Positions 6,063 to 41,502 of a stretch of DNA of 41,766 nt are shown here, in pieces (the first letter of the stretch is position 1; every line of letters starts with the position of its first letter). The notes beneath the pieces were generated by a model, which did not search any database, was not told where the DNA came from, and worked only from the letters and a program-made list of their open reading frames with translations. The stretch is from a virus. Lineage: Duplodnaviria; Caudoviricetes. Position numbers and translations under genes: made by a program. The DNA is taken from IMG/VR virus record IMGVR_UViG_3300024181_000001, positions 1-41,766 of that record. One strand, 5' to 3'.

Positions 6063-6445
6063 ACTGCCACGGCATTCCGCTGCGCCACGACCCGACCGTG
6101 CATCTCGCGCAGGCCCACGGCTTCGGCTTGAAGCGCGGCTGGATCGGCGTGAGCCACGACTTCTTCAAGTTGCCGGCGCGTGAGCAGCGGGCGATCGAGC
6201 TCCATGAGGAAGCCCATCTTCGCCATCACCACTTCGCCAAGCGCCTCGCCTTCTTGCCGCTGTACTGGACCCCGTGGGGCTTGCAACTGGCGATCGCGCA
6301 GGAGCTCGAAGCCGACGCTTTTTGTGCGCGGGCTGGATTCGGCGCAGAATTGCTCGCAGTCATCCGCCGCTACCCCTCCGGCCACTTCTATCCCGACAAG
6401 CCCCGGCGCATCGCCGCGCTCGAACAACTGATCGCCGCCTCATGA
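6059..6445 (+). CDS. M48/M56-like zinc metallopeptidase (128 aa)
   Basis: HEEAH zinc motif, ELEADAF third-ligand motif, C-terminal YP...RRI; ATGA overlaps with both neighbours. Confidence 0.8.
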
Positions 6446-7431
6446 TCATCCGCTTCCCCCCCGGCATGAGGGCCGACGCCAGCAGCGAGTTCACGCTGCA
6501 GGGCTTGATGAGCAACGCCAACGCCTACGCCGAGGAATGGGTGGGGGTCGATTCGACCCCGACCAGCGTCTTCCTCGGCACCGACGCCATCACCCTCACC
6601 ACCAATCAGGTGATGGCGAAGAACGTGATCCTGTTGGCCGGGGCAGTCAATTCTCCCTTCATCGTCTTCCTGCCGCCCACGTCCAAGATCCTCGACGCCC
6701 TCGGACCGACGGTATCGCGCGACGGCAGCTTCTGGTTCGACTTCTACATCGCCAACCAGTTGACCGGACGTGATGCCGTGCTCGCCCCGGGCGACACCGA
6801 TACGACGGTCGACAGCAACAACAACTTCATCTTGAACGGCCACTTCAACAAGTGGATGGTCAACGTCGTCCCGCAGTCCGATCCAGCGCTGCCGCTGCAA
6901 CTCAACTTCCATTCGGTGTTCAGCGCGACGACCGGCGGGGCGAGTAACCTGACCGTTACCGATGGCGTTACCAGCGTTCCCAATGTCACCACCATTGATC
7001 TTACTTCGGGCGCGACGGTCAGCAACGCCGGGGGCGGAACGGCGGATGTGGCGATCATTACCGATCAGCCCACGGTCGATTTGACCGGCAACGTCGCCAC
7101 CGAGATCAGCCTCGGCCAACATGTGTTCTACCGCTTCCTCTCCGGCGACATGGTGCTGACCGCCCCGACCTGGGCGGCGGCGGCGCCGACTAACGCCACG
7201 CCGTTCGAGGGCTATACGATTCTCTTCATCTTCGAGCAGGACGTGACCGGCGCGCACAACGTCACCCCGCCGTCGAACTTCGCCTTCCCCGACGGCTTTC
7301 CGGCGGCGATTGCCCCCGGCAGCAAAGCCTTCACCGTCTGGACCGGCGTCTACTACGGCTCCATCGGCGCGGGCACGACTCCGCTCAACGGCTGGCTGTG
7401 CGCGGTTGCCACCCAGTTCGCGGCCCGATGA
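6442..7431 (+). CDS. Multi-domain virion protein (decoration-like N-terminus)
   Basis: N-terminal ~150 aa aligns by eye with 10784-11233; C-terminal fibre-like domain (FIFEQDVTGAHNVT). Confidence 0.75.
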   Translation: MIIRFPPGMRADASSEFTLQGLMSNANAYAEEWVGVDSTPTSVFLGTDAITLTTNQVMAKNVILLAGAVNSPFIVFLPPTSKILDALGPTVSRDGSFWFDFYIANQLTGRDAVLAPGDTDTTVDSNNNFILNGHFNKWMVNVVPQSDPALPLQLNFHSVFSATTGGASNLTVTDGVTSVPNVTTIDLTSGATVSNAGGGTADVAIITDQPTVDLTGNVATEISLGQHVFYRFLSGDMVLTAPTWAAAAPTNATPFEGYTILFIFEQDVTGAHNVTPPSNFAFPDGFPAAIAPGSKAFTVWTGVYYGSIGAGTTPLNGWLCAVATQFAAR

Positions 7432-8058
7432 ATGATCATTCCGGTCTCCTACTGGTGGAAGCCTACCGCCGGGGCCGCTTGTGCGTGGGACCCGAACAAT
7501 CAGACCAGTCCCACGGTCTCGCCGATGACGCTTACCAATGCCAACCGCACCGCGCGCAGCAATGCCACCTCCGGCATCGCCACCCCGCAGGTCATCCTCT
7601 GCACGGTCGGGCACAGCACCGGCAAGTGGTACTACGAACTGATCGACGAAGCAATGACCGTAGGGGTCTCGACCGGACCGGCGTTCGGCATCGCCAACAC
7701 CGTCGCCGACGTGGGGCTGTTCTCCACCGGCATTTACGTCACAACCAGCGAGGACCAGTTGTGGGTCAACGGTGGCGTGCCCTTCACCGGCGGGGTGCCG
7801 TGGATGGTGGGCGAGCATGCGGGGGTGGCGGTGGATCTAGACGCCCATAAGTGCTGGCTCGCGCACAACAATGTCTGGTATCTGGGCGGCGACCCGGCGA
7901 CCGGCGCCAACTCGCTCGGGGCGTGGAGCGGGCTTTCCTTCCCGGCGCAGCGGGTGGCCGGTGGACAAGGCGTGCAAAAAGGCACATTGTGCCCGACAAC
8001 TCCAACTTTTCTGTATACCCCGCCGACCGGCTTTGCGCCGTGGTGCAGCGGCAGCTAG
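7432..8058 (+). CDS. SPRY/ConA-like domain virion protein
   Basis: GKWYYE, GVAVDLDAHKCW...GGDPATG and YTPPTGF motifs. Confidence 0.75.
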   Translation: MIIPVSYWWKPTAGAACAWDPNNQTSPTVSPMTLTNANRTARSNATSGIATPQVILCTVGHSTGKWYYELIDEAMTVGVSTGPAFGIANTVADVGLFSTGIYVTTSEDQLWVNGGVPFTGGVPWMVGEHAGVAVDLDAHKCWLAHNNVWYLGGDPATGANSLGAWSGLSFPAQRVAGGQGVQKGTLCPTTPTFLYTPPTGFAPWCSGS

Positions 8059-11995: not shown

Positions 11996-13414
11996 ATGAA
12001 CAAGTTTTGGCACTCCCTCTCTGCTTTTCTGACGCTGGGGGTCGTGAATCTCAGCACCTCCGACAATCTGCAAGCCGACATCGTCCCCTACATCCAGGAG
12101 GAGGTCGAGCCGCTGGCACGACGGCAACTGGTGGCCTACCAGTTCGGCAAGCCCCTGCATCTGGACGTGAATCGGGGACTGACCTACACCGCCACCCGGT
12201 TCGAGCGCCTGCCGCTCCCCTTCGCCCCGCTGCAGGAGGGGGTCGCCCCGGCGGGTGAAGCGATCAGCATCGTGCAGGTCTCTGCGACCGCCCAGCAGTG
12301 GGGCGACAGCGTGACGCTGACCGATGTGGCGAACATCACCGTGTTCCATCCCCCGTTCCAGCAGGCGATTCAGCTCATCAGCCTGCAGATGCCGGAAACG
12401 CTGGAACGCAACACCTTGAACACCCTGATCGCCGCCAATCAAGTGAACTTTGCGAATGGCAGAGCCAACCGGGCGGCGCTGGTCGCAACCGATGTCATGA
12501 CCCCGCACGAAGCGAACAAGATCTGGGCCTCGCTCGTCGGCTACGGCGCCCCGCGCTTCAACGGCGACGAGCGCGAGGACATGATGCTCGAAGCCGGCAG
12601 CTATCGCGACCCCTCGAAGTCGCCCGCCGTGATGCAGCACTACGTCGCTCTCATCAGCCCGTTCCCGGCGCAGGACATGCGCGAATCGAGCCAGGTCAAC
12701 ACCGCTTGGGCATTCTCGGACGTGAACCGGCTCTACAACAACGAGCTGGGCGCCTGGGGCGGTTTCCGCTGGTGCGAAACCAACATGATGCCGTACTGGA
12801 CCGGCGTAGCGCTGGTCACGGGGACGCCATCCGCAACCGGCGGCAACCTCGGCACGTCCTCGACCTACAACATCCAGGTGACGGCGGCGCCGTTCCAGAC
12901 CTCGGTCGAGCAGAAGATCTATCAGGTCTCCGGCAACATCAGCGTCACCGGCCCCAACGGCAGCATCAGCGTCACCCTGCCGACCCTGCCGGGCTACGTC
13001 TTCAACGTCTACATCGGCACTACCGCCAGCCCGCAGAATCTCGCCCTCTCCGCCTCCGGTCCCACCACCGGACCCCTGGCGGGACAGGCGACGCAATTGG
13101 CCTCGGGTTCCACCGTCGTGCTGACCGGGATCGGTGTTGCCCAGACCCCTCCGGCAGCGCCAGCAACCGGCGTTACCGTGTTCCCGACGCTCTTCATCGG
13201 CAACCACAGCTACGGCCAGGTTTTGCTCGAGAACCCGGAATTCTTCTACCTCACGGGTGCTGACAAGAGCGACAAATTGAACCAGACTCGAGTAGTCTCG
13301 TGGAAAATGTTTTACGGTAGCATCCTGTTAAATCAGGCGTTTTTGGCTCGGGTCGAGTCAAGCTCTGCCTTCGCGCCGGGCTACAGTGCCGGCACGATGG
13401 CCGACGCGTCCTAG
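11996..13414 (+). CDS. Major capsid protein (N4-gp56-like HK97 fold) with inserted beta domain
   Basis: PLQEGVAP, QQWGDSVTLTD, ELGAWGGFRWCETN, DKSDKLNQTRVVSWK motifs; GGAG RBS. Confidence 0.9.
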   Translation: MNKFWHSLSAFLTLGVVNLSTSDNLQADIVPYIQEEVEPLARRQLVAYQFGKPLHLDVNRGLTYTATRFERLPLPFAPLQEGVAPAGEAISIVQVSATAQQWGDSVTLTDVANITVFHPPFQQAIQLISLQMPETLERNTLNTLIAANQVNFANGRANRAALVATDVMTPHEANKIWASLVGYGAPRFNGDEREDMMLEAGSYRDPSKSPAVMQHYVALISPFPAQDMRESSQVNTAWAFSDVNRLYNNELGAWGGFRWCETNMMPYWTGVALVTGTPSATGGNLGTSSTYNIQVTAAPFQTSVEQKIYQVSGNISVTGPNGSISVTLPTLPGYVFNVYIGTTASPQNLALSASGPTTGPLAGQATQLASGSTVVLTGIGVAQTPPAAPATGVTVFPTLFIGNHSYGQVLLENPEFFYLTGADKSDKLNQTRVVSWKMFYGSILLNQAFLARVESSSAFAPGYSAGTMADAS

Positions 13415-13500: not shown

Positions 13501-14100
13501 ATGCCGTTCACCGACGAACAACGCGCCAAGGCCCTCGCCTCGCGCAAGCGTAACCGCGCGCTCAGGAAAGCCGTGGCCGAGGGCACCGTGCACGCCGAAC
13601 TGGTCGACGCTGCCGGGGCGAGCCCGCGGGAGAAGGAACTGCTCGAGCGCATCGCCAACCTGCAATCGCAACTCGGGGTCGCCAACGCCGCTAGGAGCGA
13701 AGCCGAGCAGGCGGCGATCACCGCGGCCTCGGACCTCTTCAGCGACGCCGAGGAGAAGGCCACCGGCAAGAAGGTGAAGGTGAAGCGCCTGGATTGCTAC
13801 AAGGAAGTCGGGTTCAAGGACGATGGCCGGCCCATCCTCAAGCCGGTGTTCAAGACGGTGGAACTCCCCACCTACGCCTACCGCATCAACATGCCGCCAG
13901 TGGGCGGGGTCGCGATCAAGATCAACGGCGATCTGGAGCTCTATCACGGCGCGACCTATGTCCTCGACCTCGACACTCTGAGGACGGTGAAGTCGATCGT
14001 CGGCAACCTCTGGGCGCACGAGCGCCAGATCCACGGCACCGACGAGAACGCCTATCGCAAGCCCACCCATCGGGTGTTCTCGATGCGGGGTGGCGCATGA
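13501..14100 (+). CDS. Hypothetical protein (head module)
   Basis: AGGAG RBS; phage-typical codon usage. Confidence 0.8.
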   Translation: MPFTDEQRAKALASRKRNRALRKAVAEGTVHAELVDAAGASPREKELLERIANLQSQLGVANAARSEAEQAAITAASDLFSDAEEKATGKKVKVKRLDCYKEVGFKDDGRPILKPVFKTVELPTYAYRINMPPVGGVAIKINGDLELYHGATYVLDLDTLRTVKSIVGNLWAHERQIHGTDENAYRKPTHRVFSMRGGA

Positions 14101-14504
14101 ACGAGGAGGGCCAACGCCTCGCCGCCGGCAACTTCACCCTCACTGGAGTCCTCGCCGAGGGCAAGCGCCAGATCGCCATGACCGGCTACGTCTACAGCGA
14201 CGATACGCCCGAGGAGATCAACGCCCGCCTCGACCGCTTTCAGGACGCCATCGACCGCCAAGTGCTGCGCGCGGAGATGAAGGTCAAGGAGGACGAGATC
14301 AAGAGGAATGAGGCAGGGATCGAGCAATTGGCGCAGCACTACGAGATGCTGACCCGGCGCAAGCAGACGGGCAAGAAGCTCACCAGTCAGGAAATTGACC
14401 AGCTCGACAAGTACGAATCGTCGACGGAATTCCTGCGCCGGTCCAATGCGGCCGCCCGCGCGGCGATTGCGGATGCCAAGAAGCGGCTCAATGGAGCGGC
14501 TTGA
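14097..14504 (+). CDS. Coiled-coil hypothetical protein
   Basis: ATGA overlap; MNEEGQRLAAG... helical C-terminus. Confidence 0.75.
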   Translation: MNEEGQRLAAGNFTLTGVLAEGKRQIAMTGYVYSDDTPEEINARLDRFQDAIDRQVLRAEMKVKEDEIKRNEAGIEQLAQHYEMLTRRKQTGKKLTSQEIDQLDKYESSTEFLRRSNAAARAAIADAKKRLNGAA

Positions 14505-15241
14505 TGCAAGCGGCAGCCATCTGCCTGCTCGCCTCGCGCATTGCCAAGGGCGGCACCGGGATGGTCGGCATCGCCGGGCAGATGCTCAACCTCGCGCTGG
14601 AGGATCTGGTCCTCAACCGTGATCTGAAAGTCAATCGGATCACCCAGATCATCACCGTAGGCCCCGGCACCTACGGTCCGTTCGCGCTGGAAGCCGATTA
14701 CCTGCGCACCTACGATCTGTTCTACCCGATGCCCGCCAGCGGCGGGGGAACGTCGAGCGGCATTACCATCTTCCTCGACCCGATTACGATGGAGCAGTTC
14801 GACGCCGAGTTCAAGTCGCCGAGCGTGTCGAACTACCCCTACGAGTACGCCACCGACACCTCGGATCAGGCGCAGACGCTCGTCAACGGTGTGGTGACCT
14901 CGGCGGGCGGGCTCTTCATCTATCCGCAGTCGAGCGGCAGCATCGCCATCACCCATCGCTACATGCGTAACCGCGACCCCATCCTCAATCCGCAAACCTC
15001 GGCGGTGGCACCGTGGTTCGCCTTCACTGACTATCTGGTGCAGGCCACGGCCGGGCGGATGATGGGCGTCACGGGGGATGATCGGCACGATGCCTACATG
15101 GCGCAGGCTGAGCAGATGCTGCGGCCCTATCTCATCATGGGTTCGAACGATGAGCAGCAGGCGGTTCACAATGTCAGATTGGATCCGCGCCATTGGAGAA
15201 CATCGCGCGGCGCCAAGCCTGTGAAAAGTTACCCTTACTGA
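14504..15241 (+). CDS. Head-tail adaptor (tail tubular A-like)
   Basis: Position between the MCP region and nozzle; LEADYLR, IYPQ..., PWF...YL motifs. Confidence 0.7.
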   Translation: MQAAAICLLASRIAKGGTGMVGIAGQMLNLALEDLVLNRDLKVNRITQIITVGPGTYGPFALEADYLRTYDLFYPMPASGGGTSSGITIFLDPITMEQFDAEFKSPSVSNYPYEYATDTSDQAQTLVNGVVTSAGGLFIYPQSSGSIAITHRYMRNRDPILNPQTSAVAPWFAFTDYLVQATAGRMMGVTGDDRHDAYMAQAEQMLRPYLIMGSNDEQQAVHNVRLDPRHWRTSRGAKPVKSYPY

Positions 15242-22669: not shown

Positions 22670-22797
22670 AGGTACTGCTCGCCCTCGCGGTGCTGGCGGT
22701 CGGCGGATTCTGGCTCTTCGGCGTTCACAGCCTGATCGTCGATACCGCGGCGGGGCTGCTCGCGGCCTACTTCATCTCCAAGCACGAGCGGGCATGA
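22666..22797 (+). CDS. Small membrane protein (43 aa)
   Basis: ATGA overlaps on both sides; two hydrophobic segments. Confidence 0.6.
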   Translation: MKVLLALAVLAVGGFWLFGVHSLIVDTAAGLLAAYFISKHERA

Positions 22798-24149
22798 GCA
22801 AGCGCCTGCTCATCGTGGACATCGGCTCCAACGCCCTCGACTTCGCCATGCGGGCGATGGATTGGGGCTGGGAAGTCATGTACTACGACCAGCCGCGGAA
22901 GAACGGCTCCCGCCGCATGGCCGGCAAGGGCATCGTGCCGAAGCTCATCGACTACAACCTCTTGCGCACCAAGTACATCGACTGGTCGGATTTGGTGTTT
23001 ACCCCGGACAACGCCCACTACACGGAGATGCTGGAGCCGTTCCGGCAGAAAGGCTATCCCATCTTCGCCCCCTCGCCCGCCGCGGCCGATCTGGAACTGA
23101 ACCGGCGCAAGGGCCAGGAGGCGATGAAGGCGGCCGGGATGAAGATCGTCCCCAGCGTCACCTTCGACGACTACGACGCGGCCGCGAAGTTCGTGGAGAA
23201 GCATCCGACCTACCTCGTCAGCAAGCCTTCGGGCGACGCCGACAAGGCGCTCTCCTACGTCGCCGACGATGCGGCGAGCCTCATTCACATGCTGCTCGAC
23301 CGCTGGAAGAAGAACGAGAAGTACCGGCGCGACGCGAAGCAGCACGGCTTCATCCTGCAAGAGAAGAAGAGCGGCTGCGAGATGGCGGTCGGCGGCTGGT
23401 TCGGCCCCGGCGGCTGGTCGCGGTGGAAGTACGAGAACGCAGAAAACAAGAAGTTGATGAACGGCGACCTCGGACCCAACACCGGCGAGATGGGCACGCT
23501 CTCCATGTACGTCCGGGAATCGAAGCTCTTCGATGTCGCCTTGAAGCCACTGACCAAGATCCTCAAGCAACTGGAGTATGTCGGCTATGTCGACAACAAC
23601 GGCATGGTCGACGAGGACGGGCAATTCTGGCCGTTCGAGCTCACCATGCGCCCGCCGTGGCCGGGCTTCTACAACCTGACCGCTACCCATGTCGGCGATC
23701 CGGCGCAGTGGATGGTCGATCTCCTGAACGGCGAGGACACGCTGCAGGTCAAGGAGAACGTCTGCTGCGTGAGTGTGGTCATCGCCATTCCCGACTTCCC
23801 TTACTCGCACCTCACCAACAAGGAAGTCTCCGGTATCCCGGTCTACAACTGTGGCGACCGCGAGCATGTTCACCTCACCGAGATCAAGCTGGGGGACAAC
23901 GTGCCGGTGCAGATCGGGGACACGGTGGTGAGGATGCCGCACTACGTCACCGCGGGCGATTACGTCTGTGTCGTTACCGGAACCGGCGACACCATTGCCG
24001 GGGCGCGGCGATCGGCCTACGCGGCAGTGAAGAAGATCAGGATGCCGGCGAGCCCGTTCTATCGCACCGACATCGGCGCTGGCCGGATGATCAAGGGTCT
24101 GCCGCTGCTGCAGAAGCACGGCTTCGCCACCAACTTTCGTTTCATGTGA
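22794..24149 (+). CDS. Divergent PurD/GARS-like ATP-grasp ligase
   Basis: ADLELNR..G, VSKPSG, KKLMNGDLGPNTGEMG, FELTMR, YRTDIG motifs; lacks the PurD N-terminal GGREH motif. Confidence 0.85.
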   Translation: MSKRLLIVDIGSNALDFAMRAMDWGWEVMYYDQPRKNGSRRMAGKGIVPKLIDYNLLRTKYIDWSDLVFTPDNAHYTEMLEPFRQKGYPIFAPSPAAADLELNRRKGQEAMKAAGMKIVPSVTFDDYDAAAKFVEKHPTYLVSKPSGDADKALSYVADDAASLIHMLLDRWKKNEKYRRDAKQHGFILQEKKSGCEMAVGGWFGPGGWSRWKYENAENKKLMNGDLGPNTGEMGTLSMYVRESKLFDVALKPLTKILKQLEYVGYVDNNGMVDEDGQFWPFELTMRPPWPGFYNLTATHVGDPAQWMVDLLNGEDTLQVKENVCCVSVVIAIPDFPYSHLTNKEVSGIPVYNCGDREHVHLTEIKLGDNVPVQIGDTVVRMPHYVTAGDYVCVVTGTGDTIAGARRSAYAAVKKIRMPASPFYRTDIGAGRMIKGLPLLQKHGFATNFRFM

Positions 24150-28729: not shown

Positions 28730-29113
28730 ATAGGACCGGCCGTCACCGGAACTTCCCTCCGGCCTGCTTTGCTGCGCTCTGCTCTCGCTTATCGGGAACC
28801 CGTATCGTGGGCCAGACGCTTCCTACGTGTTTCTCCCGTTTGGTCGCCGTCTGCCGAGCCAAGCGCGGCGGCGAATCCCCGGCCGGTGCTGATTCAGGGA
28901 CGGTCCTGTTGCGGTCGGACATACCGCCTTCCCCCAGACCCGCGTGTCGTCTGTTTACCCGGGCGCGCAACCCGCCAGACGACAAAAAGCCCGTAAGGTG
29001 GGTTGGTCTGGAAGCGATGCGCGTGGACATCGGCAAGATATGCACCTGTGCGAGCACACCCTGCTACCAACCCCCTTACGGGCCTAGCCTCACGCGAGCC
29101 GCTTCCAAACGGC
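28730..29113 (-). ncRNA. Structured non-coding element, copy A (~390 nt)
   Basis: Multiple stems; homologous, with compensatory changes, to 35737-36290; shared 18-mer CCCGATAAGCGAGAGCAG at 28779-28796 (minus). Confidence 0.7.
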
Positions 29114-29128
29114 ACAACAGCGAGCACC

Positions 29129-29326
29129 TTACCACCCACAATTCGGGTTTTCAATCACTTCCGCAATGTCCGCTGCGGGAATGGCTATTCGCTTGTAATA
29201 CTCGTCTTCAATGATGACAAACGCACCCTCGAATTTGAGAGTCTTGGTGTAGCTTCCTCCAGCACGTCCTTCGTGGGGAAACTTGCGCTCAGTGCCATCT
29301 TTCATCTTGACTAGTATGCTGCTCAT
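29129..29326 (-). CDS. Hypothetical protein
   Basis: GAGG RBS; compact beta-rich ORF. Confidence 0.7.
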   Translation of the reverse strand: MSSILVKMKDGTERKFPHEGRAGGSYTKTLKFEGAFVIIEDEYYKRIAIPAADIAEVIENPNCGW

Positions 29327-29335
29327 CGCATCCTC

Positions 29336-29548
29336 TCAGCGCGGGTCGGCGGGGGCGGCGGGCGGGTCGGCCCGGTCGATTTCGTCCAGCACGTCCATGC
29401 TGGTCATAGATGCCGCTGACGACATTTCCGCATTGGACGTTCTGGCGATGACCTCGCGCAGCCGGTGCATGTAATCGAAGAATGGACTCTCGCCATGCAC
29501 CTTCACCAGGCGCTGATGAATCCAGATCAACAGTTCTCGTTCGGTCAT
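29336..29548 (-). CDS. Hypothetical protein
   Basis: MTERELLIWIHQRLVKVHGES...DYMHRLR. Confidence 0.65.
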   Translation of the reverse strand: MTERELLIWIHQRLVKVHGESPFFDYMHRLREVIARTSNAEMSSAASMTSMDVLDEIDRADPPAAPADPR

Positions 29549-29562
29549 CTCTCGCTCCGTCG

Positions 29563-30231
29563 CTATTCGGGCGCGGCGATCAATTGGGTGGTCAGTTGTT
29601 CCCAGGCCCGCTCGACATCTTCCAGAAATACCTTGGCGAAGGTTTCGATGTTGGCGATCTCGTCGCGGGTCGGCGTGAACCGGCGCACGAAGAGGCGCCG
29701 CTTTTCCTCCTTGATACGTGGGTCGAATGCGATGAATTCGCACCACTTGCGCCCGGTGCAAGCCATCTGGGCGAGCATCTGCGGTTTGTGTTCCTCTGGC
29801 ACCACGCCCGCCAGCAGCCATTCGACGTACTTGTTGGTGGTCGGGCACTTCACTTCGGCGTTGCCTTCGTCGCTGATGTGACCGTCAGGCGTGGCCCCGA
29901 AGTTGTCGATCATCGGGTGGTCGTAGAAGCCGCAGGGGTTGATCACGTTGCCGGTGGTGAACTGATAGACTTCCTTGGCCTCGGTTTCGTGATCCAAACC
30001 CCACTGCATCGCGTCGGAAACGTAATGGCGCACCGATAGCCCGGTCAGACGCTCGGCTAGCAGATCGCGGATCAGGTCCGAGCGGGCCTTGGCCGGGCGT
30101 CCGTCGCGCAGGATCGCCATCGCATCGCTCATCCGGCTCGCGGTGAGTTTGCCCGCGCGCTGGGCGAGCCAGGCCGCCATCTTGTCGGCTTCGAACGGAT
30201 CGTGGCCGGCCAGCATGTCGTTGACCTTCAT
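29563..30231 (-). CDS. YqaJ/lambda-exonuclease family recombination nuclease
   Basis: WLAQRAGKLTAS, MQWG..HE, GATPDG, EVKCP, QM.CTG..WC.F..FDPR. Confidence 0.92.
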   Translation of the reverse strand: MKVNDMLAGHDPFEADKMAAWLAQRAGKLTASRMSDAMAILRDGRPAKARSDLIRDLLAERLTGLSVRHYVSDAMQWGLDHETEAKEVYQFTTGNVINPCGFYDHPMIDNFGATPDGHISDEGNAEVKCPTTNKYVEWLLAGVVPEEHKPQMLAQMACTGRKWCEFIAFDPRIKEEKRRLFVRRFTPTRDEIANIETFAKVFLEDVERAWEQLTTQLIAAPE

Positions 30232-31232
30232 GCGACCTCCAGGGCGCGGTTGCAGACCTTGCGGATTTGGGCGCGGGCCTCGGCATCAGACAGGAAATCA
30301 TCCTCGACCAGACCGTGGATGACCTTGAGCGTGGTCAGCGGGTCGCGCTGGCGGTTCAGTTCCGCTTGTTTCCTAGCAATTGCTTCTCCCTGCTCGCGTA
30401 AGGCCCGTTCCTTCAAGGCGAGGTCTTCCAGTGCCAGCCGGTCGCGTTCATCCCGTTGCGCCTTGGCTTGCTCGTCCGCACGGTCCCGTGCCTCACGGGC
30501 AATCCTTGCCTCCTCGTCCAACCGCTTGCGCTCGGCCGCGGCAGCGGCATCCAGCGCAGCCTTGGCGGTTCGTTCCTCGTCCTGTCGGCGTAGGGTCGCC
30601 TCGCGGTCGATCGCGTCCTGAGCGGCCTTCTGCGCGGCCAGTTCCTGTGCCTGTAGCCGCAGCCGTTCGGCCTCTAGCTCGTTGGCGATAGCCGCGGTGT
30701 GCATCTCGCGCAGCTTGGCGAGCGTTTCGTCGCGGGCCTGCACGCCAAGATAGGCAAGCTCCTGGTAGCCAGCCTCGTCCACCACGGTCGCGGTCAGGTC
30801 TTCAACCATCTTGGCGATGCTGATGGCAGTCTTGCCGATGGCCGTGGTGACGTAGCCGCGGATGCCGGCGATGCGGGCCTGGATCGCGGCCAGACGCTCG
30901 GTTTCCTTGCGCTCGCGCTCCTTCTTCTCGGCTTCCTTGCGTCCTTCCTCGGCCTTGATCTGGCTGTCGATAGGCGCTTCCAGCGCCAGTATCTCGGCGG
31001 TGATGGCCTTGGCTTCGGCGTCGATCAGGCGCGTACGTTCCAGCGCCGGGGCCTTGAGTTTCACCCGCATGGCCTCCAGCGACGTGCGCAGCGTCACGCA
31101 CTCGCGCCGGTCCTTGCGCGCCTTCTCCATGCCGGCCCCGGTGGTCACGTCGTAGACGACGCTCCCAAGCCGGGACCGCAACTCGGCCAACCCGGAGACG
31201 GTGGCTGAGTATTCGGTGATCTGCGTGGTCAT
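30228..31232 (-). CDS. Long coiled-coil protein
   Basis: MTTQITEYS...; extended Ala/Glu/Arg heptads within the recombination cluster. Confidence 0.75.
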   Translation of the reverse strand: MTTQITEYSATVSGLAELRSRLGSVVYDVTTGAGMEKARKDRRECVTLRTSLEAMRVKLKAPALERTRLIDAEAKAITAEILALEAPIDSQIKAEEGRKEAEKKERERKETERLAAIQARIAGIRGYVTTAIGKTAISIAKMVEDLTATVVDEAGYQELAYLGVQARDETLAKLREMHTAAIANELEAERLRLQAQELAAQKAAQDAIDREATLRRQDEERTAKAALDAAAAAERKRLDEEARIAREARDRADEQAKAQRDERDRLALEDLALKERALREQGEAIARKQAELNRQRDPLTTLKVIHGLVEDDFLSDAEARAQIRKVCNRALEVA

Positions 31233-31825
31233 TGCGGGATGTCGCTGAAATCGTCGCCGGCCTGTCGCTTGGGCTGTGCGTCGGCCTTGACGGCTGCTGC
31301 TTTCATCTTTTCCAGTTGCGGACGCAGTTGGTTGCGAATGGCGTCGGAATAGCCGACCCAGGCCACGCGAAGCGCCTCGACACCGTTGTTGCTGGCGTCC
31401 CACAACTCCTGCTCGGCATTGGCGAGTGTGTTGGTCGATACCGATGCCGCTTGCTCGAAATCGTCGGCCCCATTGCCACTGACTTGCCGCGGCGGTGCCG
31501 CTTGCCGGTGCGCCCTAATCCGAATCCCTCCGACCAGTTCTTTGCCGAAGCTCACGTTCGGGTCGTCGTAGATGATGATCTTCTTGCCGATCCAATCGTC
31601 GGTTTCGTCCGAGCCTAGCGCTTTCTCGGCAAGCTGGATGTTGGTGCCGTTCATTACCATGCCCTTCGGGAACTCGCGGAAGTACATCACCCACTTATGC
31701 TCGGCGGGCTTTCCTTCCTGCGCCATGTTGACGCGCTCGAACGCCTTGATGGTGACGACCGTGCCATCTTCGCCCGCGTCATCCTTGGTCAAATATTTCG
31801 ACTCGATCATGGTGGAAGTTTTCAT
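31229..31825 (-). CDS. Putative OB-fold ssDNA-binding/recombination protein
   Basis: SKYL...N.TN...ETDDWIGKKI.....V.FG...GGIRIR; acidic tail DDFSDIPQ; near the exonuclease. Confidence 0.65.
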   Translation of the reverse strand: MKTSTMIESKYLTKDDAGEDGTVVTIKAFERVNMAQEGKPAEHKWVMYFREFPKGMVMNGTNIQLAEKALGSDETDDWIGKKIIIYDDPNVSFGKELVGGIRIRAHRQAAPPRQVSGNGADDFEQAASVSTNTLANAEQELWDASNNGVEALRVAWVGYSDAIRNQLRPQLEKMKAAAVKADAQPKRQAGDDFSDIPQ

Positions 31826-32040
31826 GCTGGTTCTCCCTTGTCTCCAAACTGCGCTTGGTATTCCTGTTCGGTCAGCGGCTTGACGATACGGTCCTGTACG
31901 GGACGCATTTTGCCGTTACGCAAGACACGGTCGCACACGTGCAGAATCCGACCGAATGCGGTCCAGTCGTCAACATCGTGTGCGTCCTGTGCTAACTGGT
32001 CGATCTCCTGCAATGCTGCGAGCAATTTATTCCTATCCAT
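31822..32040 (-). CDS. Hypothetical protein
   Basis: AGGAG RBS; coupled to neighbours. Confidence 0.55.
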   Translation of the reverse strand: MDRNKLLAALQEIDQLAQDAHDVDDWTAFGRILHVCDRVLRNGKMRPVQDRIVKPLTEQEYQAQFGDKGEPA

Positions 32041-32200
32041 TGCTGTGCTCCTGTTGGTCTTGCTGCTCTCGTGCGCCGAGATTGGCCGCATCACTGTCGT
32101 CATGGTCCGGGTCTTCCGGGTACTCGTCCTGTGGAACCGTGCTTTGTGCTGTTCCCATCTGGCGCAACAGTTGATTGGCAAACTCGACCATGTCCATCAT
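32033..32200 (-). CDS. Small acidic hypothetical protein
   Basis: GAGG RBS; coupled. Confidence 0.5.
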   Translation of the reverse strand: MMDMVEFANQLLRQMGTAQSTVPQDEYPEDPDHDDSDAANLGAREQQDQQEHSNG

Positions 32201-32460
32201 TTCCTCCCTCCCTTCGTCCACTTCCTGTCGCTGCGCCACGTTGCGGCGTGGCTGCGGCGCACATGCTCGGCGTCGCGCTTGGCGCGGGCCTGAGCCTCGC
32301 GGCAGCGGGCGTCGCAGGCGGCGTTGATGCGGGTGATGGCGGCGCGAATGAGCGCGTCCAGATCGAACGGCTCGGGTTCCAATTGATCCCGGTAATCGTG
32401 CAGCCACGACAGATAATCGTGGCGCAGATCATTGCGCAATTCTTGGTCAAACTCTTTCAT
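32197..32460 (-). CDS. Hypothetical protein
   Basis: ATGA overlaps. Confidence 0.55.
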   Translation of the reverse strand: MKEFDQELRNDLRHDYLSWLHDYRDQLEPEPFDLDALIRAAITRINAACDARCREAQARAKRDAEHVRRSHAATWRSDRKWTKGGRK

Positions 32461-32627
32461 TTCGGCCTGCCCTTGCAATCGTAAACCCGATCCGAATAGG
32501 TAAACACGCCCGCCTTGTCGCAGTCCTTCGCGACCGAATAAGCGCCAAGGCTATACATCAATCCGCCGATACAGAAAAGCAAAATCATTACCGCTGCCGT
32601 GATAAAAACTGCGAATTCATTAGGCAT
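32457..32627 (-). CDS. Small membrane protein
   Basis: One TM segment plus C..C; GGAG RBS. Confidence 0.55.
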   Translation of the reverse strand: MPNEFAVFITAAVMILLFCIGGLMYSLGAYSVAKDCDKAGVFTYSDRVYDCKGRPK

Positions 32628-32871
32628 CGTCGTCACTCCCTTGCGCCTCGCGCCCCTTGGGTTTAGGCCCGCGCGTGGGCGCAATGTAGCGCACCGCCGG
32701 CGCCGGATCGAGCCGGGAGCGCACCAGGTCGAGCGCATCCTGTTTTGTGATCCGCGTCACCCGCTGCTCGATCACCTTGCCGTCCAAGCGGATCTCGTAC
32801 ACCACCGGCAGCAGGCGTTGCAGCGTCGCGCGGCGGGTGATGGTGACGCGGGCGGGGTCGAGAGCTACCAT
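32620..32871 (-). CDS. Hypothetical protein
   Basis: Overlaps both neighbours in the operon. Confidence 0.5.
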   Translation of the reverse strand: MVALDPARVTITRRATLQRLLPVVYEIRLDGKVIEQRVTRITKQDALDLVRSRLDPAPAVRYIAPTRGPKPKGREAQGSDDDA

Positions 32872-33059
32872 TCGCCCCATCCCATGCGCTCGTCCAGTTC
32901 GCGGTGCGCCTCCTCGCGCTTGGCCCGCAATTGATCGCGCAACTCGCGTTCGCACTCCCTCGCGCCGCAGGTATCGGTGCGGTCGTAGTAGCGGTTCTGG
33001 ATCACGCCCAGCGACTTGCCGCAGTTCCAGCAGAAGCGTTCCTTCGCGTCGGTGCTCAT
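32865..33059 (-). CDS. Small zinc-finger protein
   Basis: CWNC...CGAREC. Confidence 0.65.
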   Translation of the reverse strand: MSTDAKERFCWNCGKSLGVIQNRYYDRTDTCGARECERELRDQLRAKREEAHRELDERMGWGEW

Positions 33060-33226
33060 GCTAGCAACCCCGCGAGCGCGATGGTGACCAAGGCCAGCGC
33101 GAGGCCGACCGCGTAGCCCTGCCACGCCGGGCGATGGCCGGCGAAGTCGCTGCGACGCAAACCGGACTGCCGAACGAAGGTGAAATGTTCGGGCTGGTAC
33201 GAGTTCAGGTATTCGCGTTCTCTCAT
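33056..33226 (-). CDS. Small protein with C-terminal TM segment (56 aa)
   Basis: AAGGAG RBS; ATGA overlaps; not in the ORF track. Confidence 0.6.
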   Translation of the reverse strand: MREREYLNSYQPEHFTFVRQSGLRRSDFAGHRPAWQGYAVGLALALVTIALAGLLA

Positions 33227-33456
33227 TTGCGCTCCTTACGGTGAAAGATCAGCACGTCATCACCCAGCAATTGCCCGATCGTGTGTGGCTCGCTGATAAA
33301 CTCGATCCGTGGCCCGAACTGCGCCTCGCCTTCGGCCTGCAATTGCTTGCGCCACGCCTCCGTCTCGTCGGCCATGCTCGGTGGCAGCGGGTGCCAGATG
33401 CGCGCCGGGTCGAGCCGGTTCGCAAGTTTGTGGAGGCGGTGCGCGAGCCACTTCAT
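33223..33456 (-). CDS. First leftward early protein (no HTH seen)
   Basis: ATG just downstream of the leftward promoter. Confidence 0.55.
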   Translation of the reverse strand: MKWLAHRLHKLANRLDPARIWHPLPPSMADETEAWRKQLQAEGEAQFGPRIEFISEPHTIGQLLGDDVLIFHRKERK

Positions 33457-33459
33457 GGA

Positions 33460-33577
33460 CCAAAGTATCGTCTGTGCATGTCTAACTTGTCCAATTGATT
33501 GTTGTTATTAATGTTACGTATGTCGATAACAAAAGCTAATTGGACAATTGGACATCGGTTCTATAGGATTGTTCGGC
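33460..33577. promoter_or_regulatory. Divergent early promoters with inverted AATTGGACA operators
   Basis: Rightward TGGACA(33541-33546)-17-TAGGAT; leftward TGGACA(33488-33493)-18-GATACT; TTGTCCAATT/AATTGGACAA inverted pair; AT-rich. Confidence 0.7.
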
Positions 33578-33739
33578 ATGGACCTGTACGCAAGACTGAT
33601 CGAACGCTTCGGAACCGGTCGCGCCGTAGCGCGCGTGCTTGGACTCCCTGAGCAGCGAGTCTACAAGTGGCGGGTGCGTGGCGTGCCGAAGAAGTATAAC
33701 AAACAAGCCGAGCGCGCGTTGAACAGGAACGGGCAATGA
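33578..33739 (+). CDS. Cro-like HTH regulator
   Basis: LIERFGTGRAVARVLGLPEQRVYKWRVRGVP. Confidence 0.85.
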   Translation: MDLYARLIERFGTGRAVARVLGLPEQRVYKWRVRGVPKKYNKQAERALNRNGQ

Positions 33740-34629
33740 TTGTCGTCACCGCAGGGGTGTTGCGCAAGATATTTTCCGGCGAGCCGCTGACTCGGCACGT
33801 CGGGATTATTCCTGCCGGCGGGCGGCCCAAGGGCAGCAAGAATCTGGCGGCGCGAATCGACAAAGGTCAACGCCGACGGCAACTGCATCAGCCGCGTGAC
33901 GAGGAAATGATCACGATGCACCATGACGGCAAGACGTTGGAGGAAATCGGGCAGCACTTCAACCTCACACGCGAGCGGGTGCGGCAGATTCTTGCATTGC
34001 ATGGACTCACGCGCCTTGACGGCGGGAACTCGACCAAGATGTTTTTGTCGGCGCAAGATCGAATCCAGAAAGAAAAAGAGCTTCTGGCAAAACGAGAGGC
34101 GCGAATATGGAAACAAACGGGGATGACGCTTGATCAGTGGCAGGACCACGTTTCTATCTATGGCAATGATAGCGACAAGCGATCCCCGTTTCACAAGTTC
34201 AAGAACCAGAAAAACAGCGCACGTCACCGTCTCATCGAATGGCGATTGACTTTCAAGGAATGGTGGGAGCTTTGGCAGGAATCAGGGCATTGGCACGAAC
34301 GCGGACCGGGCAAAAGCTATTGCATGGCCCGATACGGAGACAGTGGGGCCTACGCCGTCGAGAACGTTTATATCTGCACAGTGGGCGAGAACTTCTCCGA
34401 CTCGTATATAGTCAAGCCGTGGCATGAACGCTGGCCTAGTGGCCATCCCGGTTCGCACGCACGAAAAGGTCGCGGCTGGACTTATATATCGAAGCTCAAG
34501 ACCAATCCTTATCGGGCGCAATGCGCCAAAAAATATCTGGGTCAATTCCCGACTGCGGAGGCGGCACACGCTGCATACTTGGAAGCGCGTCGGCAACTCC
34601 TCGGCGGCAACGGCAAGGCGCGGGCATGA
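33736..34629 (+). CDS. Sigma70-r4 HTH + HNH-like + AP2-like multidomain protein
   Basis: TLEEIGQHFNLTRERVRQI; LTFKEWW...CMARYGDSGAYAVENV....N; YLGQFPTAEAAHAAY. Confidence 0.75.
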   Translation: MIVVTAGVLRKIFSGEPLTRHVGIIPAGGRPKGSKNLAARIDKGQRRRQLHQPRDEEMITMHHDGKTLEEIGQHFNLTRERVRQILALHGLTRLDGGNSTKMFLSAQDRIQKEKELLAKREARIWKQTGMTLDQWQDHVSIYGNDSDKRSPFHKFKNQKNSARHRLIEWRLTFKEWWELWQESGHWHERGPGKSYCMARYGDSGAYAVENVYICTVGENFSDSYIVKPWHERWPSGHPGSHARKGRGWTYISKLKTNPYRAQCAKKYLGQFPTAEAAHAAYLEARRQLLGGNGKARA

Positions 34630-34808
34630 GCGAGCCGAAATTGCGCTGGTACGTCAAGAAATCGTGGCAAGCCGCCCCAGGAAGCTGGGCCGTGGAATGG
34701 CCGCGCAACGCGGAGTTGGTGGAGGAAAAGACGCTGCAATACTTAGACGACGACGGCCAATGGAAAGAATTACCACAGATCCAAGGTCCGAGGCCCGCTC
34801 ACCCATGA
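34626..34808 (+). CDS. Hypothetical protein
   Basis: ATGA overlaps; KLRWYV...LQY....W..LP. Confidence 0.6.
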   Translation: MSEPKLRWYVKKSWQAAPGSWAVEWPRNAELVEEKTLQYLDDDGQWKELPQIQGPRPAHP

Positions 34809-35173
34809 CCGCCCCGCGCTCCGCCGCGCCGCGAGCCTCCCAGTACGCGCTCGGGCGGCTACCGGCCGGACACATGAACCAGACCGAGGCGCACTATGCC
34901 GGCCACCTCGAATGGCGCAAGTCCTGCGGCGACGTGAAGTGGTATCGGTTCGAAGGGCTCAAGTTCCGGCTCGCCGACAACACGTTCTATACGCCCGACT
35001 TCGCGGTGATGCGTGGCGACGGCCAGATCGAGCTGCACGAGGTCAAGGGGTTCTGGCAGGACGACGCCAGGGCCAAGATCAAGATCGCCGCCGAGATGTA
35101 CCCGTTTCTGTTCCTGGCCGTCACCGCGCAGGCGAAGAAGCACGGCGGGGGCTGGAAGGTGGAGCAGTTCTGA
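34805..35173 (+). CDS. PD-(D/E)XK endonuclease (DUF1064/resolvase-like)
   Basis: MNQTEAHY, YTPDF, HEVKG, KIK motifs. Confidence 0.85.
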   Translation: MTAPRSAAPRASQYALGRLPAGHMNQTEAHYAGHLEWRKSCGDVKWYRFEGLKFRLADNTFYTPDFAVMRGDGQIELHEVKGFWQDDARAKIKIAAEMYPFLFLAVTAQAKKHGGGWKVEQF

Positions 35174-35305
35174 GGCCCCCTAGCGGCGGCGGCGATGGGA
35201 CAAGATTCCGACAATTGGATTGCCGACTTGGCGCTGCGACATCTGCCGGGGCAACGGCGGCTGGTGGCACTGCTATACCTGCGCGCCGGAAGAAGGAGAT
35301 GAAGC

Positions 35306-35692
35306 ATGAATCCTGATGACGTGGTTGGCCACAAGACTTTCCATGATGGCAAGGGCGGATTTCGGCATGAACCGCTGACCCGCGCGGATGCTGACTCCAT
35401 TATGGCGCGGGTCGAGGCAGCCATTGCAGAGCGTGCTGGCCGCTATCCGACCGCGGAGGACGCGGTTACGGCGGTCTGGGGCGCGGTCCAGCGGCTCAAG
35501 GAACTGGGCTGGAAGGACGCTCGCTACGCCCCGCCTAATGGCAAGATGGTGTCGGTGATCGAGGTCGGCTGCTCGGCAATCCTCGCGGCCTATTGCGATC
35601 CTGGCGCGGGCCTTGGCGACCGGTACTGGTGGCATCCGGCCGAAGGCGACCTGTGGCCATGCCATCCGATCCTGTACTTGGACGAGGCGTAG
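35306..35692 (+). CDS. Hypothetical protein
   Basis: AAGGAG RBS; RLKELGW...YAP..G motif. Confidence 0.7.
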   Translation: MNPDDVVGHKTFHDGKGGFRHEPLTRADADSIMARVEAAIAERAGRYPTAEDAVTAVWGAVQRLKELGWKDARYAPPNGKMVSVIEVGCSAILAAYCDPGAGLGDRYWWHPAEGDLWPCHPILYLDEA

Positions 35693-35703
35693 GACAAATC
35701 CTA

Positions 35704-35732
35704 TTGCATCCGCGCGCGAGCCTTGCTATGAT
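35704..35732 (+). promoter_or_regulatory. Sigma70-like promoter driving ncRNA copy B
   Basis: TTGCAT-17 nt-TATGAT with extended -10 TG; first hairpin begins 4 nt downstream. Confidence 0.7.
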
Positions 35733-35736
35733 TGCC

Positions 35737-36290
35737 GTGCTGTCTGGAAACAGCACTTTTGGGACAGGCCCTAAACAGGGTCGGGAGCGGGGAAACCCGC
35801 CGGTGTCCGAAAGCATCGTTCCAGCCCACCCCTGTTTAGGGCTTTGTCATGGATCAATGGTACTGCAAGGTAAGCGGCGAAGCGGGGCCCCGAGTCCCGC
35901 ACAAGACGTTAGCCAAGGCCTACACCGAAGCGCGGCGGTTGTTCGATCTTCACGGTCGGACCCGCCGCGTTTACGTTTTGGAGGTCATCGGCACCATCGA
36001 GCCGGAAGCAGACCAGCCCCAGACCATGGTGCGCGACAGCCGTACACCGGACGGACCAAGGGTCTGACCCCGCCGCGCGGAGGAGCAGGGTTGGTCTGTG
36101 GCGCCTTAGTCCACCGCCCCTACACTAACAAGCCGGGGGTTCGGGGCCAGCACGACGCGGCAGCCCCGACGAAACGGGTTAAGCACGTATGGCCTGCGTA
36201 CCCGCCCCGCATACTGGGCGACCCGATAAGCGAGAGCAGCGTGCAGTCCAAAACAGTCACCGTTGGGGCCTTCCTGGTGAGGGCTTGTCT
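35737..36290 (+). ncRNA. Structured non-coding element, copy B (interrupted by a ~170-nt coding insert)
   Basis: 13-bp perfect stem 35768-35780/35830-35842; homology to copy A on both sides of the insert. Confidence 0.7.
35849..36067 (+). CDS. Small protein embedded in ncRNA copy B
   Basis: P...H.T...A..EA.RL.......VYVLE..G pattern; 3' end runs into the conserved element. Confidence 0.55.
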   Translation: MDQWYCKVSGEAGPRVPHKTLAKAYTEARRLFDLHGRTRRVYVLEVIGTIEPEADQPQTMVRDSRTPDGPRV

Positions 36291-36317
36291 TTTCTCCGCT
36301 CTAAGGGAGGATTGAGT

Positions 36318-39471: not shown

Positions 39472-39654
39472 TCATTTTCCTGCCTGTTTCTGATTCCACT
39501 CGTGCGCGAGCAGTACCTCGAGCCAGTGCGGGATCGGCCGCGTCCCCCGCTCCCAGTGCTGCACGGCGCGCAGCGTCACCCCCACATGCGCGGCCAGGCG
39601 CGTGAGCGTCCAGCCGGCCGCGGTGCGGGCCGCGTGCAGTTCGGCGGGGGTCAT
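39472..39654 (-). CDS. XRE-family HTH regulator
   Basis: MTPAELHAAR...LAAHVGVTLRAVQHWERGTRPIP. Confidence 0.85.
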   Translation of the reverse strand: MTPAELHAARTAAGWTLTRLAAHVGVTLRAVQHWERGTRPIPHWLEVLLAHEWNQKQAGK

Positions 39655-39777
39655 AGAGTGCCGTTAGGTGGACCAAATACGGTATGCCCCGCGTCGCCAA
39701 TCCGCCACGGCCCTGGTGTGTGTGTCGTCATCATCATCCCCGGTTAGCATCGGCGCTTTACCCTTGCCGATGATTGT

Positions 39778-39840
39778 AGTATGAACCTAGTTCACTATCC
39801 TGTCAAAGACTGATTAATCATATGGAACCATGTTCGCTAT
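39778..39840 (-). promoter_or_regulatory. Leftward promoter with two GAAC-N3-GTTC operators
   Basis: TTGACA(39801-39806)-17-CATACT on the minus strand; GAACCTAGTTC 39783-39793; GAACCATGTTC 39825-39835. Confidence 0.7.
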
Positions 39841-39987
39841 AACCTTTCGGCAGTAGCAGGCCCAAAACGTACACGCGGAGAATGGCTTGCATCCTAGCTA
39901 TCCAGGTTAGTGAGCACTAACTATCACGGAGAGCGCCTATCCACGCGGCCCGTTTTTCCTCGGTGGAGCTAAAACCTGTCAAGCGAG

Positions 39988-39996
39988 TTATCCACA
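39988..39996 (+). promoter_or_regulatory. Perfect DnaA box
   Basis: TTATCCACA inside the ~1 kb gene-poor region. Confidence 0.45.
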
Positions 39997-40767
39997 GGAA
40001 ATCAACGCTACGCCAGCGGTGCATTACCGCATCCGCACAAAGCGGAGATTAGCCAACAGCAAGCATAGCGAAGTGAGCAATCACTAACATTGCCGCAGCG
40101 CACAATCCAAATGACCGGCGGTCAGTTAAAAACTCGTGCTACATTGATTTGCCGTTTCGCGCGAAGACTGACTTCGCGTAGCGAGCGCCCTCATCAGCAA
40201 CCGTAGCCATGCCCACCGCAACCCGCACGGCGCCATCAGGTTCGGTTATGCCCGAAGAGGATCGCGAGCTGAACCGCCAGCAGCAGGAGCGCGACGACCA
40301 AGAGGAGTACCTGCCCTGGGATGAGGGACAGCATGAGCCAGGGAGCCCACCGGACTAGCTCACGCCATGAGCCAGCGATGAGCGAACCGAACGGACAGAC
40401 CAAGGTTGCTTCCCTCCCATCGCTGCAGATTATCGACAGTCCGCTTGCGATAGCTTCCGCTTATGACAGTCGGATCAGCCCGAAGTGGGAGCCCAGTGGG
40501 TAATCGGGTCCGCGACCGAAGTAGACATAATCCCCGTTACGCGACAGTACCGATCAAGCCGGGCCGCAAGTGGGAGCGGGGTGGGAAACGGGGCGATGTG
40601 AGCGCTCGCTGACCTGTCCTCCGGGACCCATCCGGGGCCGGACGGGTGGGTTGAAAGTGAAGCTCCCCCTCCCGCCGAAATGCGAGCAATTTCAGCGTTT
40701 TGACTTCCCGGCTCCCGTGTTAGGCTTGGGTGGTCCCGCTGCGGGCTTTTGGTGATAGCCTTGCTTG

Positions 40768-41502
40768 ATGACTCCCTATTGGTTCGATGATCGGTTGACG
40801 CTGTATTGCGCTGATGCGATAGACCTGCTTCCGGAGTTTCGCGCAGACGCGATCATTACCGACCCCCCTTATGGAGAAACGAGTCTTGATTGGGACCGTT
40901 GGCCTGATGGCTGGCCTGGAGTAGCCGCAAAGGTATCGTCGTCGATGTGGTGCTTCGGTTCGCTGCGGATGTTCATGGACAGGGCGGCCGAGTTCTCGAC
41001 ATGGAAGATGAGTCAGGATGTGATTTGGGAGAAGCACAACGGGACGAATCCATTCAACGACCGATTCCGTCGCGTGCATGAAATCATCGTCCACTTTTAC
41101 CGCGGCGATTGGGCCAAGGTTACCAAGACCCCGCAGTTCACCAATGACGCCACGGCGCGCACCGTTCGGCGCAAAGCCCGCCCCCCGCAATGGGGCGACA
41201 TTGGCGCGTCATCTTACGTCAGCGATGACGGCGGTCCCCGGCTCATGCGAAGTGTCATCTATGCCCGCAGTTGCCACGGGATGGCGATCCACCCGACGCA
41301 GAAGCCGGAGGAGATCATCCGCCCGCTGCTCGAATACAGCGTTCCCAATGGCGGCACGGTCCTTGATTGCTTTGCTGGAAGCGGGGTAGTTTTGCTTGTC
41401 GCCCGCAAAACCGGACGCCGTGCCATCGGCATCGAAAAGAGCGAGCAACGCTGCGCCGCGATCGTCGAACAGCTCGCGCAGGACGAATTGCTGGTTGGCT
41501 GA
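40768..41502 (+). CDS. Beta-class N6-adenine/N4-cytosine DNA methyltransferase
   Basis: ITDPPY, IWEK, HPTQKP, VLDCFAGSG motifs. Confidence 0.92.
   Translation: MTPYWFDDRLTLYCADAIDLLPEFRADAIITDPPYGETSLDWDRWPDGWPGVAAKVSSSMWCFGSLRMFMDRAAEFSTWKMSQDVIWEKHNGTNPFNDRFRRVHEIIVHFYRGDWAKVTKTPQFTNDATARTVRRKARPPQWGDIGASSYVSDDGGPRLMRSVIYARSCHGMAIHPTQKPEEIIRPLLEYSVPNGGTVLDCFAGSGVVLLVARKTGRRAIGIEKSEQRCAAIVEQLAQDELLVG

Follow-up and report, generated by a model that had tools for sequence, protein, structure and literature searches.

Outward-facing copies of an uncatalogued structured element as putative RNA-primed origins in a phage without detectable replication genes

How might a tailed phage start copying its genome when no replication gene can be recognised in it? 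The question is raised by a viral DNA stretch of 41,766 nucleotides (nt) (Duplodnaviria; Caudoviricetes; IMG/VR record IMGVR_UViG_3300024181_000001, positions 1 to 41,766), hereafter the window, which is a complete circular phage genome with a 127-nt terminal repeat, encoding a terminase and a P22-like portal and capsid (PHROGs profile search). It holds two outward-facing copies of a structured element, copy A (29120-28735, minus strand) and copy B (35737-36288, plus strand), and the analysis supports assigning both to a large structured element of an uncatalogued family. The answer proposed here is that A and B are putative RNA-primed replication origins in place of the missing phage initiator, ColE1-like in mode and not homologous to ColE1, a reading to which slightly less than an even chance is given. 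The element itself is, from sequence comparison, a real new RNA family, and the case for a replication role is good but indirect.

The element has been found in three genomes: the window, G001 (locus L011; a 58% fragment covering the early region) and G002 (locus L009; 99% complete). Identities of 93% for the capsid and 84-97% for the terminase make these carriers close kin, and they probably form one clade, as judged by such identities rather than by a tree. The sequencing runs that hold the window are soil metagenomes, and no RNA sequencing run holding it was present among the runs listed.

Copies, core and leader of the element

With copy A as the query, nhmmer matched copy B in two blocks, a core (36114-36293, E 5e-8) and a leader (35732-35847, E 1.1e-4), so the homology asserted in a preliminary description of this DNA holds. 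The 18-mer reported as identical in both copies is present at 28779-28796 and 36222-36239, as are the named hairpins and the stems with compensatory changes. The length of ~390 nt given there fits A but not B, which reaches 552 nt because a real 72-amino-acid (aa) gene of an unnamed phage family (35849-36067, plus strand) sits between its leader and core blocks. The 72-aa protein has five database homologues besides itself, and G002 has the same gene at the same place. A hairpin within this gene is conserved (35905-35965 in the window; 12655-12710 in the G002 homologue at L009), and its two strands encode the two most conserved motifs of the protein. Three linker motifs listed earlier do align between the copies but are not above chance by themselves (p 0.22). 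The linker of A (28935-28983, minus strand) has a 9-base-pair hairpin overlapping a U-run, and resembles the 3' end of the open reading frame (ORF) of B weakly and not significantly when taken alone (p 0.22).

Four copies of the ~190-nt core are known (A, B, G001 and G002), three of which are ~91% alike. In the fold predicted by hand, helix P1 closes the core, which also has a stem P3, hairpins P2 and P4-P6, and two pseudoknots: PKa would pair an upstream pyrimidine tract with a G-tract after P1, and PKb would pair the P2 loop with a segment after the invariant 18-mer. In core A (28735-28934, minus strand), PKa is predicted at 28901-28896 with 28880-28875 and P1 at 28887-28881 with 28741-28735, together with P2, PKb and P3-P6. 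In core B (36095-36288, plus strand), the predicted pairings are PKa at 36116-36121 with 36135-36140, P1 at 36128-36134 with 36282-36288 and PKb at 36150-36154 with 36240-36244, in addition to P2 and P3-P6.

In the core alignment (A2), 99% of cells pair, compared with 38-57% in slid controls. Both sides have changed in 8 of the 29 pairs, a number reached by 0 of 500 shuffles in a test that is partly circular, because the structure was derived from the same four sequences. The hand register adds further double changes (two in PKb, two in P3 and others in P1), and its mismatches are one G-A in P4 (G001, G002) and one C-A in P6 (G001). Junction sequences are invariant across the four copies, and conserved G-U pairs occur on the sense strand of the core. 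With both the G001 and the G002 core, core B shares 91% identity, against 80%, 71% and 63% for neighbouring genes. The predicted core structure rests on this covariation, since the nested fold of the core is no better than that of shuffled sequences. In folding energy against shuffles, the leader stands out (B leader z -5.4), but the B core (z +0.7) and copy A as a whole (z -1.5) do not. A coding function of the core was rejected, as the overlapping ORFs lack family matches and the alignment has non-triplet indels; an intron was likewise rejected, the flanking ORFs being separate genes.

The earlier assignment to a class of no known family was upheld by the comparison with Rfam, which gave 0 matches at E<=1 for the whole window and chance-level matches at most for each copy alone and for the G001 and G002 regions. 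Covariance models of the raiA motif (RF03072) and of Polynucleobacter-1 (RF01718) gave 0 matches, the latter in the window at E<=10. Polynucleobacter-1 (RF01718; PMC2864571, consulted in part) is an orphan RNA that also starts with a 5' hairpin, and its alignment shows only short word-level resemblances to the element. BLAST against phage sequences returned no further homologue when A, B or the G001 element served as query, and plasmid-collection BLAST with core A gave chance matches only. Beyond the window, a viral sequence-pattern search found only G001 and G002, and a metagenome pattern search over 95 loci found only the same three genomes again. A leader pattern search gave nothing real among 99 loci, the core model matched 0 of 20 records holding kin of the downstream protein, and kin of the 72-aa protein yielded no additional homologue of the element. 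A GTDB pattern search (26 loci) had as its best match L260, which was rejected as coding sequence matched by chance.

One alternative is a free noncoding RNA or ribozyme, in which the P1-closed, doubly pseudoknotted core would be excised or self-cleaving and would act in trans like raiA, ROOL or GOLLD, the lack of replication genes having another cause. P1 closing the core into a compact unit, the invariant junctions and the occurrence of the core behind different upstream sequence in G001 and other contigs all fit this explanation. It is nevertheless thought unlikely: neither Rfam nor the raiA model gives a match, and it would be a coincidence that the element is confined to relatives lacking a full initiator.

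Sigma70-like promoter sites, each with 8/12 consensus positions, precede both copies: at A (29126-29154, minus strand) the -35 box lies at 29154-29149 and the -10 box at 29131-29126 with a 17-nt spacer, and at B (35704-35732, plus strand) the boxes lie at 35704-35709 and 35727-35732. The leader, 110-140 nt long, starts within ~10 nt of the -10 box and is the only part that folds better than shuffles. Leader A (28984-29120, minus strand) is predicted to form a hairpin H1 (29113-29098) and a long multiway stem H2 (29085-28987) followed by a U-run, and its H1 loop can pair over 7 nt with the H2 junction strand 29014-29008 as a kissing loop (p 0.003, with the loop chosen by eye). In leader B (35737-35848, plus strand), H1 (35737-35756) is followed by a multiway stem H2 (35766-35844) that ends 4 nt before the ATG, and a 6-nt pairing is possible between the H1 loop and the junction strand 35819-35824 (p 0.0004).

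Comparison among carriers indicates that the element is modular, being built of a leader and a core. The promoter-proximal sequence of A is the same at the orthologous site of G001, where the promoter and leader layout recurs (kissing p 0.011) and a different folded domain of ~400 nt, which core models do not detect, lies 3' of the leader (z -6.8 for the whole). The B-site copy of G001 is a core without a leader, and G002 has the same leader layout in unrelated sequence (kissing p 0.37, not significant in a test based on minimum free energy). A segment at 35688-35744, holding the B promoter and a small inverted repeat before its -35 box, recurs in other soil contigs, where the hairpins that follow it and their loop sequences are different, and the leader thus has further variants; together with the variation of leaders and 3' domains among carriers, this makes the system modular. 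In the parts that they cover, soil contigs also show core variants like those of G001 and G002, as well as promoter variants. A descriptor of promoter plus leader (kiss >=6, U >=3) was built on four sites of the three carriers and fitted exactly these 4 among 291 promoter-like sites; in 24 other records, some of which are covered only in part, it fitted 0 of 253 sites. The folded element of G001 (L011, ~980-436, minus strand), orthologous to the copy A site, is a second uncatalogued large folded element, without an Rfam, phage-BLAST or core-model match. The initiator-bearing relative G003 has an ORF in place of the element at the A site, which by eye is dCMP-deaminase-like.

The position of the leaders raises the alternative of cis-acting transcription control, with the leader as a put-like antiterminator or attenuator and the core as a 5'-untranslated-region processing or stabilising element that drives read-through into the downstream operon. 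HK022 put RNAs are two diverged, outward-facing, promoter-proximal RNAs of ~70 nt with two stems and a U-rich tract, located at the main early promoters. The element shows a comparable promoter-proximal layout of two stems and a U-run, yet it measures 390-550 nt, lies far from the Cro region and has a large 3' core. Its leader ends at the start codon in B and G002, all four cores end <=~40 nt before a downstream start codon, and no Q- or N-type antiterminator is annotated in the window (PHROGs), all of which would suit such control. The four cores stand before genes that do not form one family, an argument against a gene-specific switch. Copy A has only one 127-aa gene behind it, where the left operon ends, and it faces the late genes. 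As this alternative also leaves the missing replication genes and the swapped ~400-nt domain of G001 unexplained, its probability is considered low.

Replication genes in carriers and relatives

Searches of 87 ORFs with PHROGs, of 72 window ORFs with Pfam and of 18 further ORFs recovered no polymerase, primase, helicase or initiator, nor did six-frame searches with phrog_1408, phrog_270 and phrog_906 reveal a replication gene in the window. The absence of visible replication genes described earlier thus withstood PHROGs, Pfam and six-frame profile searches. The G001 fragment, which spans the early region, has no replication gene, and the sole match in G002 is a 122-aa domain that aligns with positions 174-259 of phrog_270, an initiator profile of 383 positions. 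Neither complete carrier therefore has a full-length replication gene. The G002 domain is a stand-alone protein (L009, 14067-14435) encoded ~1 kb downstream of the core and matching only the C-terminal domain of phage initiators and primosomal proteins; it could be a helper in loading the host helicase.

For comparison, 395 capsid-related loci were matched, 80 were kept and 50 records were searched with the core model. The model matched 1 of these 50 records, and 1 of 25 at >=90% completeness, namely G002; G003, which has its left early arm in common with the window at ~80% nucleotide identity (L036), was not matched. Among the near-complete relatives without the element, 24 of 25 encode an initiator, primase, helicase or polymerase. 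Initiators were found in twelve (G003, G004, G015, G021, G023, G026, G028, G029, G034, G041, G047 and G009, the last by an atlas match to Phage_rep_org_N/DUF1376 only), and a primase, helicase or polymerase in twelve (G018, G019, G022, G025, G033, G035, G037, G038, G045, G049, G050 and G051). The exception is G008, whose early region is truncated. The close relative G004, which lacks the element, has an initiator gene with internal iteron-like repeats (L142, 2-646). Across the capsid family (G008-G051), at least four interchangeable replication modules were observed: initiator alone, ParB-helicase-primase, polymerase-primase-helicase and none.

RNA-primed origins and the evidence for and against them

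The idea of ColE1-RNAII-like origins put forward in the preliminary description survives as a way of working only, because the ColE1 record matches the element neither in sequence nor by model, and an antisense RNA I showed up in neither the Rfam comparison nor the promoter scan. The way of working is supported by the lack of a replication gene in the carriers, the promoter-like sites, the twin loop repeats described below and the swapping of cassettes at the A site. ColE1 RNA II is ~550 nt long and primes through an R-loop with RNase H and Pol I (PMC5043065, in the portion available). As in ColE1 (PMC5043065, same portion; NC_001371), no initiator protein was found by profile searches, and a promoter-like site precedes a structured 3' region by several hundred nt; the B cassette (552 nt) is also close to RNA II in size. 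Unlike ColE1, the element has an intramolecular kissing loop in its leader with a U-run on the same strand, a gene inside B, two outward copies and a phage as its carrier. A pre-primer transcript of the ColE1 type would start at the 8/12 promoter-like sites. A supposed word-level likeness to RNA II failed both sequence and model tests (nhmmer best E 39 without alignment at the origin; 0 covariance-model matches on the ColE1 record at E<=10). The ColE1 record NC_001371 has two G6 runs in the RNA II region. G6 runs of ColE1 act in RNA-template pairing, and ColE1 replication includes a PriA step.

Within each copy of the core, the same 5-mer occurs in the P4-loop region and in the P6 loop (28823-28819 and 28756-28752 in A; 36191-36195 and 36267-36271 in B), and the version in A differs from that of the other three copies. 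The 5-mer of A lacks self-complementarity, and one possible explanation is therefore that it pairs with template DNA. In the mechanism proposed, every step of which we infer, host RNA polymerase would start at the promoter-like site, and the kissing-loop leader with its U-run would gate or license read-through. The double-pseudoknot core would then fold co-transcriptionally and present the P4-loop 5-mer, which could pair with the template strand opposite the identical P6 5-mer to give a persistent RNA-DNA hybrid. Generating and extending the primer would fall to RNase H and Pol I of the host, whose restart primosome would be loaded onto the displaced strand. As the copies face outward on opposite strands, A is proposed to prime leftward and B rightward. 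The notion of one origin per strand fits the window but is not general, because the nearly complete G002 has one detectable copy; a single copy would suffice there. No dedicated protein partner is evident, since the only early proteins common to all three carriers are two small ones, a helix-turn-helix (HTH) protein (also in G003) and a 55-aa acidic protein.

Several observations weigh against RNA-primed origins. The anticorrelation with replication genes suggested earlier was obtained (Fisher p 0.009) but weakens to p 0.15 if the lone domain of G002 counts as an initiator, and it amounts to about one independent contrast because the carriers are close kin, probably of one clade. A cryptic initiator among the small unannotated ORFs could have escaped the profile searches. 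Both promoter-like sites are absent from the listing of the genome promoter scan, that of A lying below the cut-off, and the B core of G001 has no promoter and leader of its own. For an antisense RNA I there was no Rfam match and no antisense promoter or terminator at the leaders, in a scan that also missed the sense promoters; ColE1 DNA has no similarity to the element. At neither A nor B does GC skew point to an origin, G002 has a single copy, and the nested core fold does not exceed shuffles in stability (z +0.5 to +1.7 across core windows, besides the B value given above). The twin 5-mer has two states only and was noticed post hoc; in A, a 4-nt indel lies beside it and the same 5-mer also occurs elsewhere.

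The unremarkable RNA fold of the core relative to shuffles could also mean that the core folds as single-stranded DNA, marking each lagging-strand template with a signal for primosome assembly or single-strand initiation and flanking a central origin near the divergent promoters. The outward orientation on opposite strands and a turn of the cumulative GC skew at ~33 kb are compatible with this, and motifs of single-stranded DNA and RNA are hard to distinguish computationally (PMC5737381, in its consulted part). This alternative is regarded as quite improbable, given the conserved G-U pairs on the sense strand, the promoter-like sites ahead of the leaders and a central origin that would still lack an initiator. 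Moreover, transcription switches direction where the skew turns, and no matching pattern is seen at four-fold sites.

RNA-primed origins have precedents outside phages. As of 2010, RNA-initiated replicons were described for ColE1 and for marine RNA-based (MRB) plasmids, the latter with a Rep-less origin and RNAs unrelated to those of ColE1, so RNA-dependent origins have arisen more than once (PMC3035462, from the text available). MRB replicons are Vibrionaceae plasmids with an antisense RNA I of ~68 nt, set apart from the present element by that description (PMC3035462, same text), and their hallmark is a conserved unit of ~110 bp with RNA I and terminator antisense to RNA II. ARRPOF, GEBRO and PAGEV are likewise structured, being motifs of 223-349 nt at or near plasmid origins, and the region around ARRPOF can replicate in the absence of rep (PMC5737381, in its consulted part); these motifs are plasmid-borne, and the element matches no Rfam family. 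In the literature covered, which lay outside subscription papers, no report was found of a structured RNA replacing a phage initiator gene.

A broader and rather doubtful proposal is that a clade of P22-like podoviruses discarded its initiator and lets two strand-specific RNA primer cassettes start both forks, each with a swappable kissing-loop leader and drawing on at least two R-loop-forming 3' domains, which would add a third kind of RNA-primed replicon, one that evolved independently and is borne by phages. If the origin reading is true, it would explain how some small tailed phages copy their genomes without replication genes, and would provide compact protein-free origins for vectors. 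The R-loop trigger step is called speculative even for ColE1 (PMC5043065, in the portion available), and the element comes in two natural variants whose inbuilt compensatory changes and twin repeats open this step to direct testing. If the origin reading is false, a new pseudoknotted RNA family would still stand, with a second one in G001.

Other genes of the window and its relatives

The early region of the window consists of divergent operons around a Cro-like gene, with a YqaJ exonuclease, a resolvase-like gene, an HTH/HNH protein and a methyltransferase; profile searches found no integrase in the window, and it has 0 tRNA/tmRNA genes. In lambdoid phages the position next to Cro is usually that of the initiator gene. 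Here the Cro-like gene is directly followed by a gene for an HTH/HNH-type protein (33578-34629 for both, plus strand, from PHROGs and Pfam context; 33736-34629 for the latter), the C-terminus of which we take to be AP2-like from its motif. Contigs from two runs skip 33836-34254.

Outside this region, an N6/N4 DNA methyltransferase is encoded before the terminase (40765-41502), and a gene-poor gap at 39654-40209 shows no strong folding signal. G003 (L036) has two ORFs judged by eye to be transposase-like (6350-7678 and 13912-14742). An ATP-grasp (GARS-like) protein is encoded in the late region of the window (22794-24149) and is kept in G002, G003 and G004.

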